In this document: one piece after another, positions 25,656 to 49,445 of the stretch
How positions within the stretch are numbered: position 1 is the stretch's first letter
Layout of the letters: every line of letters starts with the position of its first letter
IMG/VR virus record: IMGVR_UViG_3300018430_000002
DNA from: a virus
Lineage: Duplodnaviria > Heunggongvirae > Uroviricota > Caudoviricetes
Length of the DNA stretch: 64,000 nucleotides
Strand: one strand, 5' to 3'
The notes under the pieces: generated by a model
What the model saw: only the letters and a program-made list of their open reading frames with translations
What the model was told of the DNA's origin: nothing
The model's database searches: none
Program-made: the position numbers and the translations under genes

Positions 25656-27146
25656 TTATGCGTTCGGGGTCTGAGGTGCGGCGACGGGCTGATTCATCAT
25701 GCCCATCATCACGAAAGGGAGCATATCGCTACCCTTTCCATCCTTCATGAGGAAGTACATCATCATGGGGTTGGACATCAGGTTGGTGCTGCCATTCTGA
25801 TTCATCATCATCATGAGCATCATGGGATCCATATCCTTATTGCCCATCAGCATGAAAGGAAGCATGTTGCCGAAAGGTGCGTCGGCAGATGCGGTACCAT
25901 TTACGCTGTCAAAGAGAGAAACAACCTTGGTTACGAAGTTGAAACCGAAGGGGCTCTTGACGGGATAGATGGTCTTTTCGGTAGCTTCACGGATATCCAC
26001 TACAGTCAGAGTCTGGGCGTTGACTGCGGTAACGTACATCGGCACGCGGTTATGGACAACCACATCGCCGACTTTTACGTCCTTGATAGCGACGGGCATC
26101 TTGTATACGAATTCAGAGCCGGGCATACTGAGGACTTCTACGTCCATTACGCTCTTGTTCTTGTTGTCCCAGGACACATAGCGGCCATCGACACCCTTGA
26201 TAGCCAGGCCATAGGTAGAAACGCGAACGGAATCAGTTACACGACCGAAATCAAAGTTAAACATGGAATTGGTGTTCATAATATCCTCCTTATTTTCTTC
26301 AGCGCATTTGAGATCGTTTATAGGGGCAAGGTGAACTTCTAGGTCGTGGCCCAGCTGTTCCACTCTCTTTTTTAGAAGTTCAATAGTTTCATTTAGAGCT
26401 TCATGTTCTTCATTGATATGGAAGTCGACAGTATTAGCAGCCATACGTTCTCTTCCATCGACATAGTTAAGTTTATCTTCCAGGTCAGCTTTTACGCACT
26501 CAAGCTGGTCTACTCGCTTTCGAATCTCATAGATATCGTTAGGAGTAGTGCCATAGGCGGACTGTTCCAGAGACTCGATACGACCGAGAGCGACATCACT
26601 AAGTGCTTTCAACTCTTTGGTACACTTATCGACTTTTTCTCGAATAGGATTGACTTCACTTTTGTATGCGGGCTGTTCAATCTGGATTGATGAACCGATA
26701 TCAGCCCACAGATTGGGAATAGTAGTAGTAGAGGTAGTATTAGTGATTGCTTTAGAAGCCGCAGAAGTGGCGTCGGCTAAATCACCAATAGCCTGTGTTG
26801 CGGCAGTAATACCAGATGTCGCGGCAGCGATAGTAGAAAGACCCATATTTTCTTGTGTCCCTGCGCCCCACAGATGATTGAATAGCTGTTTGCCGGCTTC
26901 TCTCTGGCAGATGTATTCTGTTTCGAGTCTATCACCAAAGTAGAACTTAATAGAGCCCCACGGCTCTGTATAGTCTCTCTTGTCAGCGATAGTCAGCTGG
27001 CTATAGTCGCCGAGAAGCGCCTTAGCGCCCCTGATGGCGAGATCGCGCATTCGTTTCCAATCATCACGAGGAATTTTAGAACCTTTATAAGACTCAAGAG
27101 CCTTATAAAAGTTTTGATTAACGAGCGTTTTTAGCATATTCGGCAA
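25656..27146 (-). CDS. coiled-coil protein with Met-rich low-complexity C-terminus
   Basis: ORF track 496 aa. C-terminal MLPFMLMGNKDMDPMMLMMMMNQ...MMGMMNQ. Confidence 0.5.
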   Translation of the reverse strand: MPNMLKTLVNQNFYKALESYKGSKIPRDDWKRMRDLAIRGAKALLGDYSQLTIADKRDYTEPWGSIKFYFGDRLETEYICQREAGKQLFNHLWGAGTQENMGLSTIAAATSGITAATQAIGDLADATSAASKAITNTTSTTTIPNLWADIGSSIQIEQPAYKSEVNPIREKVDKCTKELKALSDVALGRIESLEQSAYGTTPNDIYEIRKRVDQLECVKADLEDKLNYVDGRERMAANTVDFHINEEHEALNETIELLKKRVEQLGHDLEVHLAPINDLKCAEENKEDIMNTNSMFNFDFGRVTDSVRVSTYGLAIKGVDGRYVSWDNKNKSVMDVEVLSMPGSEFVYKMPVAIKDVKVGDVVVHNRVPMYVTAVNAQTLTVVDIREATEKTIYPVKSPFGFNFVTKVVSLFDSVNGTASADAPFGNMLPFMLMGNKDMDPMMLMMMMNQNGSTNLMSNPMMMYFLMKDGKGSDMLPFVMMGMMNQPVAAPQTPNA

Positions 27147-27248
27147 GCTCCTGAGGAGTCATTTGGTCGATTTCTTCACGGGTCAGTGGGCGAGGACCCT
27201 TACCATAAAGAAGTTCATATTCCACAGGGATTTCTCCTTTCTTCATTT
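27117..27248 (-). CDS. small protein (43 aa)
   Basis: Hand translation MKKGEIPVEYELLYGKGPRPLTREEIDQMTPQELAEYAKNAR. TTGACT-N17-TATAAT promoter at 27253-27290. Confidence 0.3.
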
Positions 27249-27494
27249 TCTATAAATATTATATCATAAATTTATAGAAAAGTCAATTAGAAGATTCTCT
27301 TGGCGAGATTGGATTGGAATTCCTTTCTCAACCTTACATATATATTATATCAAAATTTTTTGAAATTTTCAATTTAACTCTTCGCAGCGTTAGCTGCGAA
27401 GTTGACAACGATAAAAATTTTTGGTATAATATATATAGAAAATGAGCGAAGAGTTCATTTATCAAATATTTTATTTATAGGAGCGAACTATATT

Positions 27495-27719
27495 ATGATG
27501 ACTAATAAGATTATTTACACTCGTAAGATTGCTATGAAGTTGGTTGAGATGGGTCATGTGCCCGCAGGCACTATGCCGAACCCCAGCAAGCCCGAATTCC
27601 TTTGCTGGATTTTTGAGATTACTCCGAAGTTTGAAAAAGACCTTCAGACTGTACTTGGCGAAGCGACTCCGCGCAGCCGTTCGGTAAGTGTTAAGGTAAC
27701 GGACGCCAGCATTGAATAA
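27495..27719 (+). CDS. hypothetical protein
   Basis: Trimmed from the 27402 ORF-track start to the ATGATG after RBS TAGGAG. Class III promoter at 27395-27423. Confidence 0.4.
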   Translation: MMTNKIIYTRKIAMKLVEMGHVPAGTMPNPSKPEFLCWIFEITPKFEKDLQTVLGEATPRSRSVSVKVTDASIE

Positions 27720-27734
27720 CGTCGCACCCCGTTA

Positions 27735-28587
27735 GGTAAATTATCTACTATACTTCAGGTAAATGGGTAATAAGTGATAATTTTACTGATAGAGATTTGA
27801 TATTCCCCTGATAGTCAGGGGGTGAGTAAGAAAGTTGGCTATTTAGAAAAGATTCCCCGCCGATACGGATCTAGAGAAGGAGATTACGTTTTTGAAAGAT
27901 AAGAGTATTGATGCCGAGTTATATGCTTATCTACAATTCCTTTCTTATCCTATTGACGGGGCTACTGTCGTGAAAAAGAGAAATATGCCGTCGCAGGCTG
28001 AAATATGTTAGAAAATTGGAATTAAAAGTCCAAAGACATATAGGTCTCATTTGGCTATATTGATTGATAAGGGTTATGTTATTGAACGAGATGATGTTTA
28101 TATATTGCCGGAAGTGGAAGATATTTATTTATTGCTGCCTTTGCCGACATTATAGTTTATCTTGGATACAGTAACGGACCCTGTTATCAAGATGTATATT
28201 TATTTAGGCTAGAGATGGAAGTATAAGCCTGGGTATATTTTCACTTAGGAAGAAGTAGCAGAGCATATAGGAATAAAGTTGGATGGTAATGCAGTCGCTC
28301 GGCGAATGATAAAGCATGGTTTGATAGCGCTATAGAACCATGGTTTGATTGCATTTGAATAGTTCTTTGATGGAAAAAGTCCACGGTATCGGCTACTGGG
28401 GTGGTCAGATGCTTATGTGGCTAGGGAGGCCGTACCTGGGGTAGTGGTTTGAAAAAATGATTTCAAAACGGCGGACCCGGGAGGGTCCACCGAAATTTGA
28501 TTTCAAAATCTCAATGGGTAATTTTATCTACATACTAGGTGATGTTAGGTAAAATTTCTACCATACTTTAGGTAAAATTTCTACCAA
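27735..28587. repeat. iteron-like direct repeats GGTAAwTTwTCTACyAtACT (4 copies: 27735, 28511, 28545, 28567) flanking the recoded wHTH gene
   Basis: Two perfect 17-mers AGGTAAAATTTCTACCA sit in tandem. Also nearby: palindrome CCCCTGAtagTCAGGGG (27808-27825) and a 16-bp perfect stem with UUCG loop (28655-28690). Confidence 0.5.
27892..28452 (+). CDS. winged-helix DNA-binding protein with six in-frame TAG codons (Rep/initiator-like, flanked by iterons)
   Basis: Hand translation from TTG after RBS GAAGGAGA: ...PSQAEIC(TAG)KIGIKSPKTYRSHLAILIDKGYVIERDDVYILP... and a second unit EEVAEHIGIKLDGNAVARRMIKHGLIAL. Ends at TGA 28450. Confidence 0.45.
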
Positions 28588-28687
28588 TATCTAAATAAAC
28601 TAAGGGCTAACGAAATCCCTTCGGGCTTTCTTTATCCCTTACTAAATAAGGGGAAACGGTTCCCCTTCGGGGAACCGTTTCCCTAGG

Positions 28688-29176
28688 GTGAAAGGAATAA
28701 TAGGTATGATTGAATTGATGTATGGAAGCCAGATTGAAGCAGAATTGTTGGGAACTGTCAAAAAGATGCCTTGTTATTTGGTGAGCAGAAAGGATTTTAC
28801 TGAGTATTATGAGAAAGAGCATTTAAAAGATGCCGAAGGCATCTATTTCTGTCATGATACTAGTAATGGATTAAGAGCCCTTATTTATAAAGGTCAGGTA
28901 GTTGGCACAGTGAATGCTCGTAGCGGCAATATTACTTGGTATGATAAGCCGAAGAGTTGGGAAATGGTTTATAAGCCAGTAGAATTGCCGAAGAATAAGG
29001 TTGGGGTTATGACGGCAGAAAATTCTGTATTTTGTATCGAAACTAAAATGCCGCAACCTTATAAAGGGGACGGAGGCATCGCCGATGTCCACTATATTGA
29101 TAGTATTATGAATAAGTTATTAGCTGAAGGCGAGGCCTTTAGGGCGAGCCTTCAGAAAGGAGATAGCAATGGCTAA
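28688..29176 (+). CDS. hypothetical protein (GTG start; alternative ATG at 28706)
   Basis: ORF track 162 aa. No TAG. Confidence 0.5.
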   Translation: MKGIIGMIELMYGSQIEAELLGTVKKMPCYLVSRKDFTEYYEKEHLKDAEGIYFCHDTSNGLRALIYKGQVVGTVNARSGNITWYDKPKSWEMVYKPVELPKNKVGVMTAENSVFCIETKMPQPYKGDGGIADVHYIDSIMNKLLAEGEAFRASLQKGDSNG

Positions 29177-29474
29177 TATGTGTATTGGTACTTATAAAGG
29201 GCATTATATTTATAAGTACACAGTTGAAGAGTTTAAAGCTTTAGCGAAGAGAGAGCGCAATAAGGTTTATTTAGTTAATGGATATATGGTATTGAATGAT
29301 GTGGTTGTCGGCAAATTCTCAGGATATACCATCAGTCCGGCAGAGGCTGGGGCAAATATTTATGATTTGTTTGGCGTGGAACGACCAGTAATGCCAAAGC
29401 CACGCAAGAAGCGTAACGTTGCGGTTCCTGCGGAACCACGGGAGGAGCCTGTTACTGATACTCTTGTTGAATAA
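29169..29474 (+). CDS. hypothetical protein
   Basis: ORF track 101 aa. Bidirectional terminator at 29481-29512. Confidence 0.5.
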   Translation: MANMCIGTYKGHYIYKYTVEEFKALAKRERNKVYLVNGYMVLNDVVVGKFSGYTISPAEAGANIYDLFGVERPVMPKPRKKRNVAVPAEPREEPVTDTLVE

Positions 29475-29480
29475 TAAAAA

Positions 29481-29512
29481 GGAGAGACCTTGATTGGTCT
29501 CTCCTTTTTTCT
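29481..29512. terminator. bidirectional terminator between convergent genes 29169..29474(+) and 29605..30186(-)
   Basis: GGAGAGACC-ttgatt-GGTCTCTCC, flanked by A-run and T-run. Confidence 0.55.
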
Positions 29513-30186: not shown

Positions 30187-30482
30187 CTTCTGTATATATT
30201 ATATCAAAATTTTTTAGAAAAGTCAACAGAGGGAGCGCTGAAGCGCCTCCCTCTGAGCTTTTTTTAAATATTATATCATAATATTTAAAATTTGTCAAGG
30301 CGGGGCTCCCGCATTCGCGGTAGGCGGGGCCATATGGATAGGCCCAGGGTTTCGGGATTCAAGGTAAAAGGGGCCATATGGTTGCATTCAAGAGAAAATT
30401 TTGCATATAGGGTTGTGGAGCGGAAAACCGGCCGCGCGCGGCCGGGCAAAAATGCAGGATTGAGAAGTCAATCCTGCAAATT

Positions 30483-35185: not shown

Positions 35186-35232
35186 TTTATTATACCATGA
35201 AAGGGCTTGATTGTCAAGCCCTTTCTTTGTTA
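35186..35232 (-). promoter_or_regulatory. class II promoter, representative copy: TTGACA embedded in a gene-specific palindrome, TGnTATAAT -10, upstream GTTAACAAAC/TTAAC motif
   Basis: About 25 copies in front of nearly every small minus-strand gene between 31200 and 43310. Spacer often contains TCCCGAAACC. Confidence 0.55.
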
Positions 35233-41879: not shown

Positions 41880-41964
41880 TGTTGTATTCCCCTCTCGTTT
41901 CTTTCTGTATTTATTATACCACGGAAAGGCTTGTCTGTCAAGCCTTTCCTTTGTTAAGTGTTTG

Positions 41965-43299: not shown

Positions 43300-43420
43300 T
43301 CAATGAGTTATTTGTTAAGAATGTGTTAACAATATTTAACAAACATTTAACATTTCGGGAAAGTAGGGGTTTGGTCAGTTTGTTAAGTTTTTGTTAAATT
43401 TTTGTTAACAACATGTTTTC
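43300..43420. repeat. cluster of at least 8 TTGTTAAC/TTAACA motifs (same element found upstream of class II -35 boxes)
   Basis: atttgttaagaatgtgttaacaatatttaacaaacatttaacattt ... gtttgttaagtttttgttaaatttttgttaacaac. Confidence 0.45.
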
Positions 43421-45054: not shown

Positions 45055-45346
45055 AATACATTACAGCATCTTTCATATTATATCTATCGCCGACCCAAAA
45101 AGTATACCACTGAGCCGGGCTTACATATTTGGTCCAACGGCAACCATCAAGGTCATCAATGACAAACCAGTAAACGCCACCATGATTCTGACCATATTCA
45201 TCAATATAGCCAGTTACCATACCCTTGTCTACGATAACGCCAGTGTCATTGCTACTACCAACAAGCAAACCACAAACTCCCACAAAAATACAAATCAGGC
45301 CTACAATTAAAACTACCCATTTCATAGTATTTACCTCTTGTTTCAT
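45008..45346 (-). CDS. membrane/secreted hypothetical protein
   Basis: ORF track 112 aa. Class I promoter at 45345-45395. Confidence 0.45.
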   Translation of the reverse strand: MKQEVNTMKWVVLIVGLICIFVGVCGLLVGSSNDTGVIVDKGMVTGYIDEYGQNHGGVYWFVIDDLDGCRWTKYVSPAQWYTFWVGDRYNMKDAVMYFGDEGIWQDYQGGYA

Positions 45347-45390
45347 TTTCTAAATATATTATATCAAAATTTTTTAAAATTTTCAAATTG

Positions 45391-45419
45391 AAGATTCTTG
45401 ACACGAGAAAAAATTTTTG
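45391..45419 (+). promoter_or_regulatory. class III (plus-strand) promoter TTGACAnnGAtAAAAAATTTTTGtTATAAT; other copies at 27395-27423 and 60707-60735
   Basis: Three near-identical copies including the 17-nt spacer. Each is followed by a GGAGG-type RBS and a plus-strand gene. Confidence 0.55.
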
Positions 45420-45443
45420 TTATAATAATACTAACGAAGGAGG

Positions 45444-47702: not shown

Positions 47703-49445
47703 ATGGCTTTATAGGATTTATTAAACCTTTCACAAGATAGATAGAAAATTGGATTATCAGAAGAACGAGTAAGGGCTATTATTCCTGTTGCTCGCGACTA
47801 TATTTCTTACTGGCGTGAATATCCAGATATGTTCGTCGACTTTATGGCGGGTAAGTGGCAAGCCAACCCGCCTAAAGAGACGCTTAATCTATTCTTCTAC
47901 CAGCGAGTATTTTTGAGAGCCGCTATGCGTTATAAATACGTATATGCGGTTTTTCCGCGTGCTTATTCTAAATCTTTCCTTGCCGTTTTGATTCTTATGA
48001 CTCGTGCCGTTTTATATGCCGGCTCTAAGTTATTTGTAACATCTGGTGGTAAGGAACAGGCTTCTGGTATTCTAAAAGAAAAAGTATAGGAAATTTGTAC
48101 TTTGGTGCCGGGCTTCGCAAAAGAGATTGATTGGGGCCGTGGTAAAACTTTGGAAGGTAAGGATTATTGTAAGTATATTTTTAAAAGTGGTTCTTATATT
48201 GATAACTTGGGCGCTTCTGAAAAATCAAGAGGTAAGCGTCGTCATGGCGGACTCGTTGAAGAGTGCGTTGGTGTCGACGGAACTATTTTGAACGAAGTTA
48301 TTATTCCAGTTATGAACGTTTCTCGAAGATTGCCCGATGGCACTTCTGATGATAATGAAGTTCTTAATAAGAGCCAAATCTTTGTTACGACCGCAGGTTG
48401 GAAGAATACTTTTGCTTATGATAAACTTATTCAAATGCTAGTTGGTTAGATTACACAGCCTGAAAAGTTCTGTATTATGGGTGGTACTTGGCGTATTCCT
48501 GTTCTTATGAAATTACTTGATAAGAACTTTGTGCGCGACTTGAAATTGGACGGTACATTTAATGAGTCCTCTTTTGAACGTGAATATGAATCTAAATGGT
48601 CTGGTACTATCGAAGATGCATTCTTCCGTGCAGAACAATTTGACCGCAACCGCATTCTACGTCAGCCTGAATATGAATATTCCGGACGTTCAATTAAATC
48701 GGCATATTATGTTCTGTCTGTTGACGTTGGCCGAAAAGGTTGCGATACGGTAGTTTGTGTATTTAAAGTAACACCTTAGACTGCCGGTGTGTCTATTAAA
48801 ACATTGGTAAACATTTATACACTTCACAATGAACACTTTGAAGATTAGGCTATTGCACTCAAAAAACTTTATTATAAATATAAGGCGCGTCGTATTGTTA
48901 TTGACGCCAATGGTCTTGGTATTGGTCTTGTCGACTATATGGTAAAATCTTAGATGGACCCAGATACGAATGATATTTATCCTGACTTTGGTGTAGAAAA
49001 TGATCCCGATGCTGAATATAAAAAGTTCCGCACAGATGCGTGTGAATATGATGCTATGTATTTGATTAAAGCTAATGCGCCAATCAATACTGAAGCTCAT
49101 GCCAATGCGTAGACGCAACTTTCCTCTGGTAAAGTAAAAATGTTAATAGATGAACGTGTGGCCAAAGTAAAATTGCTTGGAACTAAACGCGGTCAAGAAA
49201 TGAAGCCTGAAGAAAGGGCGGAATATCTTAAACCATTTACCCTTACCTCCATATTGAAAGAGGAAATGATGAATTTGCGTGAAGAAAATGAAGGCGTAAA
49301 TATCATCTTAAAGCAAGCGAATAAAGGTATAAAAAAGGATAAATTTTCTGCTTTTGAATATGGTTTATACTATATTAAATAGGAAGAAGATAGTAAAAAG
49401 CGTAAACGAAAAGGAAAAATATCTGATTTTATGTTTATGAATTAA
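47703..49445 (+). CDS. terL: terminase large subunit with about 10 in-frame TAG codons
   Basis: RBS GAGGAGG, ATG 47703. One frame joins track ORFs 47829.., 48102.., 48477.. and 49140... ATPase-like FVTSGGKEQ and VTTAGWKNTF motifs. Nuclease-like RRIVIDANGLGIGLVD motif. Confidence 0.65.

Follow-up and report, generated by a model that had tools for sequence, protein, structure and literature searches.

The stretch analysed here, hereafter the window, comprises 64,000 nucleotides of IMG/VR virus record IMGVR_UViG_3300018430_000002 (Caudoviricetes) and is part of a large tailed phage. Between two blocks of minus-strand genes it carries a compact cassette, in which a gene for a protein with two winged helix-turn-helix (wHTH) units, written with many in-frame TAG codons, has short direct repeats (iterons) on both sides, the downstream ones running into an AT-rich segment and two hairpins (Table 1). 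An earlier note on this DNA, made from the sequence alone, had taken the arrangement for a Rep-iteron replication origin. The layout proved to be conserved in about 25 loci, while the protein matched no characterised initiator significantly, and the best-supported reading, towards which we lean on the strength of sequence comparison, is an iteron-type replication-origin cassette whose initiator would be gated by a suppressor tRNA.

Table 1. Features of the cassette and its surroundings, with positions in the window.
Feature	Position	Strand	Details
tRNA, anticodon CUA	10744-10836	-	ARAGORN; Rfam tRNA 57.5 bits
Divergent promoter region	27243-27445		two leftward and one rightward promoter, TTGACA-17-TGnTATAAT; promoter scan, 11-12/12 matches; inverted repeats I1/I2
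Sigma-70-type consensus promoter	27286-27258	-	
Sigma-70-type consensus promoter	27372-27344	-	
Sigma-70-type consensus promoter	27402-27430	+	
74-aa gene, TAG-free	27495-27719	+	open reading frame (ORF); peptide KIIYTRKIAMKL...NPSKPEFLCW
Iteron c1	27733-27755	+	TAGGTAAATTATCTACTATACTT; upstream of wHTH gene
Degenerate iteron copy	27756-27778		next to c1
Weak inverted copy of iteron 5' half	27776-27787	-	GATAATTTTACT, reverse complement AGTAAAATTATC; just before ribosome-binding site
7-bp hairpin	27805-27821	+	over Shine-Dalgarno GGGGGTGA (27817-27824) of wHTH gene; fold z-score -3.4
wHTH gene	27835-28452	+	205 codons/aa; seven in-frame TAG read as Gln (27844, 28009, 28153, 28210, 28246, 28333, 28360); TGA end
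Direct-repeat module	28453-28512	+	TGATTTCAAAA at 28458 and 28498, flanking GC hairpin 28469-28492
Iteron c3	28515-28537	+	TGGGTAATTTTATCTACATACTA
Iteron c4	28546-28568	+	TAGGTAAAATTTCTACCATACTT
Iteron c5	28569-28591	+	TAGGTAAAATTTCTACCAATATC; truncated at ...CTACCAATATC
AT-rich segment	28586-28650		window's only two CTAAATAA motifs (28591, 28642); split by hairpin 1
Hairpin 1, imperfect	28601-28641		apex CCCTTCGGG; minus strand CCCGAAGGG; from fold
Hairpin 2	28651-28683		perfect 15-bp stem; apex CCCCTTCGGGG; loop TTC / C(TTCG)G; CCGAAGG on minus strand
Small gene, TAG-free	28706-29176	+	downstream of cassette, same operon
Small gene, TAG-free	29169-29474	+	downstream of cassette, same operon

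The wHTH gene more likely starts at TTG 27835 than at TTG 27892, because homologues keep the peptide xQKRFPADT upstream of the latter; the six TAGs counted in the earlier note hold for the inner start, whereas the likelier outer start gives seven. Database searches returned 80 homologous proteins of 180-215 aa, aligned over their full length with E down to 1e-97, and full-length conservation extends to more than 160 proteins when a second, distant family is counted. The TAGs of the window fall at conserved glutamine columns (e.g., YLGQRW), at which relatives alternate TAG with CAA/CAG. Two winged-helix units, as had been proposed from the sequence, are seen in an AlphaFold2 model of a 65%-identical homologue that stands in for the window protein (predicted local distance difference test score 91.6), and we propose the protein as a putative iteron-binding initiator. 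A second, strong Shine-Dalgarno sequence (GAAGGAGA) with an in-frame TTG lies inside the gene at 27876-27894, at a conserved TFL position 19 codons from the start, and two isoforms are therefore possible; in one relative (L005, around 9990-10003; L numbers denote loci of the comparison set described below) a short isoform from the internal TTG would skip the sole TAG of the gene.

Iterons lie upstream of the gene and again past its stop codon, and none was found inside the gene. Four had been reported from the sequence with a length of 20 nt and, in part, as perfect tandem 17-mers; all four are real and unique in the 64 kb, but the unit is 23 nt, and the tandem pair c4/c5, spaced by 23 bp, shares a perfect 18-mer. 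With up to three mismatches allowed, 0.00 matches to the 23-mer are expected by chance, and its occurrences in the 64 kb are confined to the cassette, with no iteron-like sites beyond chance elsewhere in the window. The array is also the highest-scoring tandem repeat of the window. The inverted half-copy before the ribosome-binding site is a candidate autoregulatory operator, and relatives have GGTAAA...TTTACC palindromes, formed from the iteron 5' half, before the ribosome-binding site that are clearer than that of the window (L002/L026, L016, L019, and L028) or an inverted iteron core at the corresponding place (L001 and L021).

Immediately after the gene, the TGATTTCAAAA direct repeats do bracket a GC hairpin, as the earlier note had described. 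Three exact copies occur in the window, against 0.19 expected, with no window-wide enrichment when mismatches are allowed, and the module is accessory, its place differing among relatives. A related observation is that the motif (A)ATGATTTCAAAA (28458-28508) is a second conserved repeat of the cassette, present in 1-5 copies at shifting positions: it precedes the iterons in the window, and in L001, L005, and L013 it follows the big hairpin and lies upstream of a sigma-70 promoter. The AT-rich segment beyond the iterons is a candidate DNA-unwinding element, and the two hairpins that split and follow it are, taken jointly, far more stable than shuffled sequence (fold z -6.8 on the plus strand and -8.1 on the minus strand). 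The second had been described as a perfect 16-bp stem with a UUCG loop; the hairpin and its loop are there, but the stem has 15 bp. As an intrinsic terminator it was rejected, its plus-strand tail (TAGGGTGAAAGG) having no T-run and the terminator scan flagging the minus strand only; a T-run after the hairpin is also absent in most relatives.

What is conserved in these hairpins is the apex rather than the stem. Among 23 distinct hairpins tabulated, nearly all have perfect stems of 11-19 bp with a GC content of 12%-67%, and their stem sequences are unrelated, while the apex is conserved and strand-specific, reading ...TC-GCTTCGC-TC... or CCCTTCGGG on the plus strand. The density of GCTTCGC is 1.60 per kb over the 300 nt that follow the gene and 0.054 per kb elsewhere (30-fold), with a 12:0 strand bias. 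On the minus strand the apices read GCGAAGC, GCGTAGC, GCGGAGC, or CCGAAGG, and tandem G·A pairs often adjoin them. By the definition of mini-hairpin DNA in a 2026 review (PMC13037366), here applied as GCGNAGC, GCGNNAGC, or CCGAAGG at the apex on one strand, the window hairpins belong to this type: both carry CCGAAGG on the minus strand, GCGNAGC is found in 11 relatives, and CCGAAGG in about six more. That review reports the motif, a stable DNA mini-hairpin, at the complementary-strand origin of phage G4 and, in its CCGAAGG form, in RSF1010 ssiA, where it is bound by the RepB' primase (PMC13037366). Since the apex has this motif on the minus strand, a role of the single-stranded minus strand is favoured, and hairpin 2 is a candidate single-strand initiation (priming) signal or RNA hairpin. 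The cruciform-type palindromes of the earlier note are strong hairpins, for which 'priming-site-like' or 'RNA hairpin' is a better description than 'proven cruciform'. Other identities were considered and set aside: Rfam matches to the small RNA SurA (20.8 bits against a gathering threshold of 100 bits, with many non-canonical pairs) and to throat-1 were rejected, as was a rolling-circle nick site, the protein being winged-helix throughout and matching only HTH-type families. CCAATATCTAAATAA resembles the phiX174 origin, but we take the likeness to be superficial.

The comparison set consisted of 36 related loci, corresponding to about 25 distinct elements, and the cassette recurs in TAG-recoded phages of 100-200 kb (on contigs of up to 201 kb), in temperate-type phages of about 21-25 kb, and in one 7 kb plasmid. 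The shared order is iterons, gene, three direct repeats spaced by 22-24 bp at the stop codon, AT-rich 10-11-mers, and a hairpin of 11-19 bp. Large-phage relatives have 1-7 iterons upstream and 2-3 downstream, the latter at 22-24-bp spacing from the stop codon on; all share the orientation of the gene and are absent from the 10-20 kb flanks. The final downstream iteron in these phages is always truncated, running into ...ATATCTAAATAA, and 2-3 tandem units of about 10-11 bp (CTAAATAA/CTAAATAGTA) lie between the last iteron and the hairpin. Iteron sequences differ by phage (GGTAAAATTTCTACCA in the window, GACAATTTTCCTACCA in L001, TTAGGTAATTTTTCATAG in L002, and GGTAATTTTGGATAGTT in L031) around a common skeleton, and they vary along with the protein, as is expected for co-evolution with a protein that reads them. 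In L002/L003, a second, distinct repeat family (AATGGTCAAAATTTTCTAT, about five copies) precedes the iteron array, about 250-400 nt ahead of the gene.

A distant branch, with about 27% identity, keeps the cassette layout, including the ...CCAAT.CTAAATAG junction, and its family is homologous to the large-phage family over both winged helices (hhalign 99.7% probability, E 2e-26). Its contexts are elements of about 21-25 kb (L033/L034), L035, and L036. L033/L034 are temperate siphophages with an integrase and light TAG recoding, similar to the 'Topaz' clade (22 ± 3 kb, Oscillospiraceae prophage). Their gene order runs from the integrase through two minus-strand genes, those for a 45-aa ribbon-helix-helix protein and one of 37 aa, the wHTH gene and its iterons, and another three small genes to the small and the large terminase. 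There the wHTH gene is the sole sizeable DNA-binding gene in the slot usually taken by the replication module, and more generally in the 23-25 kb phages it lies between lysogeny-control genes and terminase. No polymerase, helicase, or primase gene was present in the 12.6 kb examined of the L033/L034-type genome, nor in the 17.9 kb examined of L035, a 24.8-kb phage with the same picture. In L036, a larger phage with gyrase and RNase H, the wHTH gene is a lone plus-strand gene among minus-strand genes. Plasmid pRGI00117 (PLSDB, 7.2 kb, uncultured-bacterium record) encodes a 27%-identical wHTH homologue, past which lie 3 x 23-bp iterons, then three CTAATAGTAT units, then a hairpin; the plasmid also has a canonical Rep_3 gene (Rep3_N 1.6e-33, Rep3_C 1.8e-17) with its own 3 x 22-bp iterons.

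Homology searches placed the protein among winged-helix families and gave borderline signals towards initiators. HTH_36 was matched by 54 of 57 members and LexA_DNA_bind by 46 of 57 (Pfam; NCBIfam matches are likewise generic winged-helix), and the window protein itself matches LexA_DNA_bind (1.2e-8, 35 bits, residues 28-67 only) and HTH_36. No significant match to a characterised initiator was obtained, the signals being borderline Rep3_N and weak 'replication initiation' PHROGs; in profile searches against the PDB no sequence fell below E 0.04, and fold searches returned no specific relative. PHROGs labelled 'replication initiation protein', 'O-like', or 'DnaD-like' matched 9-19 of 42 members (best E 4e-7), against 1-2 of 42 for regulator PHROGs. 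In the distant branch, 17 of 34 members matched Rep3_N at 18-22.5 bits (cut-off 22.4), always in the C-terminal winged helix, and none matched Rep3_C; in the large-phage branch Rep3_N was matched by 2 of 57 members (best E 0.011). The Rep or wHTH match anticipated in the earlier note was obtained for wHTH families and was borderline for Rep3_N, and this weak homology leans towards initiators.

Membership of known families was rejected in each case considered. The protein shares with Rep_3 the tandem winged helices and a direct-repeat array beside the gene at 22-24 bp spacing (23 for c4/c5), close to two turns of the helix, but as a family it does not reach the Pfam Rep3_N/Rep3_C thresholds, and its second winged helix aligns to the pRGI00117 Rep_3 protein without significance (hhalign 2% probability). 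Against a lambda O-type initiator, there is no iteron within the gene, and 'O-like' PHROGs are weak (9 of 42, best E 1.5e-4); against a LexA repressor, the C-terminal half is a second winged helix and not a LexA peptidase domain, and TIGR00498, with its cut-off of 110.95 bits, is matched at 19.9 bits only. A full-length match to phrog_3396 ('ScpB') was obtained for the distant branch (E about 1e-8), and 25 of 42 members match this PHROG; ScpB was nonetheless rejected, as this is a PHROG label only, ScpB is not among the top 25 Pfam/NCBIfam families listed, and no kleisin or SMC genes lie nearby. The labels phrog_3396, HTH_36, and LexA_DNA_bind, of which the latter two are reached at threshold by the first winged helix in many members, denote a fold and not a tested function. 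The wHTH protein thus forms a separate tandem-wHTH family outside Rep_3, lambda O, LexA, and ScpB.

The gene stands out further by its use of TAG. In the window, minus-strand genes with few TAGs extend up to 27.2 kb and again over 29.6-45 kb, and a plus-strand block rich in in-frame TAG, with terminase, portal, and capsid-type genes, begins at 45.4 kb. Expressed as TAG / (TAG + CAA + CAG), the fraction is 7/9 (0.78) for the wHTH gene, 0/5 (0) for its three operon neighbours, 4/102 (0.04) for the neighbouring minus-strand genes, and 71/229 (0.31) for the late block. Across 24 distinct loci it is 151/253 (0.60) for the wHTH gene and 166/2195 (0.076) for neighbouring minus-strand genes (Fisher p = 4e-82); compared with a noisy set of same-strand ORFs (fraction 0.31), the difference gives p = 8e-12. 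At least one TAG is present in the wHTH gene of 21 of 21 IMG/VR relatives, some of which have no standard Gln codon in the gene, and in about half of the loci a TAG stands right before KRFPA (codon 3-4), this being the sole TAG of the gene in L005. Mutation bias of the plus strand was rejected as a cause, the fraction being twice that of same-strand late genes. The claim that this is the only TAG-containing gene in the middle of the genome fails, several other non-late genes having 1-2 TAGs (e.g., PhoH at codon 80), although the wHTH gene is by far the most TAG-dense of them. From the TAG saturation we infer that the full-length protein would require an active suppressor, as had been suggested; the codon bias is strong and previously unreported, and it lends support to the idea of suppressor dependence. 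With 7-13 TAGs per gene, protein yield would vary as a high power of suppression efficiency.

Drawing on the repeats, their conservation and co-variation with the protein, the fold, the TAG saturation, and the gene context, we propose a mechanism whose steps of DNA binding, melting, priming, and timing are conjectural. A tandem winged-helix monomer would bind each asymmetric iteron of about 21-23 bp, with one winged helix per half-site, and the three head-to-tail iterons past the stop codon would nucleate a complex that opens the AT-rich CTAAATAA repeats, so that the adjacent long palindrome is extruded or exposed. The minus-strand palindrome with its CCGAAGG/GCGNAGC mini-hairpin cap might then serve as the entry or priming signal for rightward DNA synthesis. 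The upstream iteron or iterons, together with the inverted half-site, would give autorepression and possibly 'handcuffing' with the downstream array. As nearly all Gln codons of the gene are TAG, the protein would accumulate only when tRNA(CUA) is abundant, which would couple origin firing or a replication-mode switch steeply to the code change.

In its broad lines the scheme resembles several known origins. P1 (oriR-repA-incA) and F (ori2-repE-incC) likewise have an initiator gene flanked on both sides by same-orientation iterons of about 19-23 bp; before the gene they have an inverted half-site suited to autorepression, for which the weak inverted copy of the window is a candidate equivalent. 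The Rep_3 initiators RepE, pi, and RepA read an asymmetric site with two winged-helix domains. By contrast, the Rep3_N-like unit of the window protein is C-terminal and the protein is shorter (about 200 aa), no DnaA boxes were noticed in the cassette, its main array follows the gene and leads on to an AT-rich segment and a palindrome, and the cassette occurs in lytic and temperate phages with a TAG-recoded gene. Ori-lambda comprises four iterons, an AT-rich region of about 40 bp, and a 28-bp palindrome, and its O protein relies on other replication proteins. The cassette shares this order and a phage-encoded putative origin binder, whereas the lambda iterons lie inside the O gene and those of the cassette outside the wHTH gene, and the cassette shows neither a Phage_rep_O match nor an adjacent P-like helicase-loader gene.

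RSF1010 oriV (IncQ) resembles the cassette in having 3-3.5 iterons of about 20 bp, an AT-rich segment, and a long palindrome (ssiA/ssiB), and its palindrome, like the window hairpins, carries a single-strand CCGAAGG mini-hairpin (PMC13037366). It differs in that no homologues of its RepA helicase or RepB' primase lie near the cassette, that the putative initiator is unrelated to RepC as far as tested, and that the conserved apex of the cassette is on one strand only. The position of the main array is closer to that in the pAMbeta1/Inc18 replicons and the Staphylococcus aureus pathogenicity islands (SaPI). There the origin lies directly 3' of the initiator gene, in the path of the transcript, with a single-strand initiation site downstream; as in the cassette, the cis-acting origin starts right after the initiator stop codon. 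Unlike the cassette, pAMbeta1 has no iteron array, and in SaPI the Rep protein is a helicase, with short hexamer/octamer iterons on either side of the AT-rich region; to neither was any relationship in sequence found.

For an origin speak the layout kept in about 25 loci, with repeats that are non-chance and unique to the locus, the place in the replication-module slot of the 23-25 kb phages with no other replication genes in the parts examined, and the conserved hairpin structure with variable stems and a strand-specific mini-hairpin apex. Two different winged helices and an asymmetric site of 21-23 bp would also fit the RepE/pi mode of binding. Cumulative GC skew, proposed earlier as a check, has its minimum at 25-27 kb (-2.46), adjoining the cassette and not elsewhere, but this coincides with a switch in gene orientation, and a near-equal second minimum (-2.41) lies at 44-46 kb, at the next switch; coding-strand skew of the minus-strand genes left and right of the cassette had mixed signs over 14 loci. 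GC skew therefore gives the origin no independent support. Several further points weigh against it. No replisome genes adjoin the cassette in the large phages, the Rep_3 replicon of pRGI00117 means that the cassette is not needed there as sole replicon, and the hairpin could act as RNA, its transcribed strand having a cUUCGg-type loop. The many TAGs, moreover, suggest delayed expression, unexpected for an initiator needed early.

The main rival reading, to which we give about one chance in four, is that the protein is an autoregulated transcription factor, with the direct repeats as operator or activator sites and a promoter in or after the array serving the downstream genes. The upstream sites would then give self-repression, the hairpin would be an RNA 5'/3' stabiliser or a terminator variant, and in the small phages the controlled genes would lead to the terminase. 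Matches in Pfam/NCBIfam are of regulator type (LexA_DNA_bind, HTH_Crp_2, MarR, and TrmB), a weak promoter-like site (TCTACA-17-TAAAAT, 28527-28555) lies within the iterons, and L001 and L013 have a consensus promoter after the cassette; the place upstream of packaging genes in small phages is a frequent one for late activators, TAG gating would fit a regulator that acts late, and pRGI00117 has a true Rep_3 replicon beside the cassette. Against this reading, no iteron-like site lies near other promoters of the 64 kb, including that of the late block at 45.4 kb, the window has no room for a promoter between hairpin and next gene, the downstream genes vary by lineage while the cassette is constant, and in L036 no same-strand gene follows. 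It would also leave the three conserved AT-rich 10-11-mers and the 15-19-bp palindrome with its strand-specific apex without a reason.

The remaining explanations are improbable to differing degrees. A segregation or condensation module, in which a ScpB-like or centromere-binding protein on repeat arrays positions or compacts DNA or engages host SMC, seems unlikely to us: the full-length phrog_3396 match of the distant branch, a weak TubR match (E 0.13), and the company of a Rep_3 replicon on a small plasmid point that way, whereas Pfam SMC_ScpB is not among the top 25 families listed for either branch, no ParA, ParM, or TubZ-type NTPase lies nearby in any locus, and neither lytic phages of 100-200 kb nor integrase-bearing phages of 23 kb have an obvious need for partition. 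We know of no case, besides, in which ScpB binds specific DNA repeats. Small terminases often bind direct repeats around pac/cos sites through a wHTH, and in many relatives (L001, L004, L008-L011, L014, L023, L025, and L027) the contig stops at a distance of 0.2-2.5 kb from the gene, mostly upstream of it; five of these contigs are 128-181 kb long. Such ends could be genome termini or assembly breaks at the repeated promoter cassettes and iterons. A packaging site bound by a small-terminase-like protein is still very improbable, as the ends lie at differing positions on both sides, the large terminase of the window is 19 kb away, and small phages encode a small subunit (Terminase_2) apart from the wHTH protein. 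That the gene is a decayed pseudogene among chance repeats, its TAGs true stops, would explain why the standard code splits the frame into pieces of 34-39 aa, but comparative data refute it: more than 160 proteins are conserved full-length with TAG at conserved Gln positions, the homologue fold is confident, the repeats are conserved in position and not in sequence, and the window encodes a CUA tRNA.

The cassette sits in a short plus-strand operon that runs from the rightward promoter at 27402-27430 to a bidirectional terminator at 29476-29509. Divergent promoters reported near 27253-27423, as class I and class III, were recovered as three sigma-70-type consensus promoters that all resemble one class. 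Near-identical promoter cassettes (TTGACA-17-TGnTATAAT, often divergent pairs) occur at 27243-27445, 30198-30298, and 45340-45440, the last directly before the TAG-rich late block; the late genes are thus served by a consensus promoter of host type, and it may be TAG decoding and not transcription that sets their timing. The 74-aa peptide is also encoded upstream of the cassette in L001, L005, L008, L012, L013, and L016, and neither it nor the two small downstream proteins (28706-29474) had a match in Pfam and PHROG searches. At 43305-43410, about seven TTGTTAA/TTAACAA heptamers, partly with 11-bp periodicity, lie upstream of a minus-strand TTGACA-17-TATAAT promoter and may be a binding array for another regulator; TTTGTTAAG is also found 3' of terminator hairpins at 35199-35225 and 41923-41949.

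Elsewhere in the window, a minus-strand array of 32 tRNA genes includes the one with a CUA anticodon, which is 93 nt long with a variable region of about 21 nt and is class-II-like, yet TAG aligns with true Gln codons of homologues. An unusual set of four cargo genes on the minus strand (3-1655, 1932-3443, 5561-6388, and 6401-7063) encodes a Major Vault Protein repeat and shoulder-domain protein, a DUF2828/DUF7788 protein, PhoH, and a ClpP protease, the in-frame TAG of PhoH lying within its domain. The gene at 25656-27146 (minus strand) encodes a protein of 496 aa without a family match; its middle resembles a coiled coil, and its C-terminal tail is strikingly rich in methionine (…DPMMLMMMMNQNG…PMMMYFLM…VMMGMMNQ). 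The phage is placed only by its large terminase (47703-49445), the closest relatives of which, at 44%-49% identity, are those of Enterococcus/Geobacillus siphoviruses of about 140 kb and of the recoded gut phage Phass-1. Among 50,697 GenBank phages there were zero matches, by megablast of 24 kb and tblastn of the wHTH protein. A search of 185,579 species genomes gave a single match, a 2.9-kb contig of an Erysipelotrichaceae metagenome-assembled genome, and a firm host and isolate context are therefore lacking.

To our knowledge, replication origins have been located in hardly any uncultivated gut phage. A compact cassette spread from Topaz-like prophages of 22 kb to phages of 200 kb would be a sequence marker of origins and a small vector part, and it would bring with it a family of putative iteron-binding proteins outside the curated Rep families. 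In stop-codon-recoded phages, guesses at the origin have until now had GC skew as their sole guide (bioRxiv 10.1101/2021.08.26.457843). We put forward, as a tentative proposal that may well not hold, that DNA replication in these recoded phages, in its onset or in a switch of mode, is licensed by the code switch, with the TAG-written initiator (60%-100% of Gln) as an ultrasensitive timer and the cassette as an undescribed type of origin in Firmicute phages of 22-200 kb. It has been suggested that recoding restrains late and lytic genes. Here a gene that lies apart from the structural and lysis block exceeds the late genes in TAG saturation, which would bring DNA replication, or a master DNA-binding regulator, under the same kind of control; and if the protein is a regulator instead, its TAG saturation is still the most extreme gene-specific recoding in these loci.

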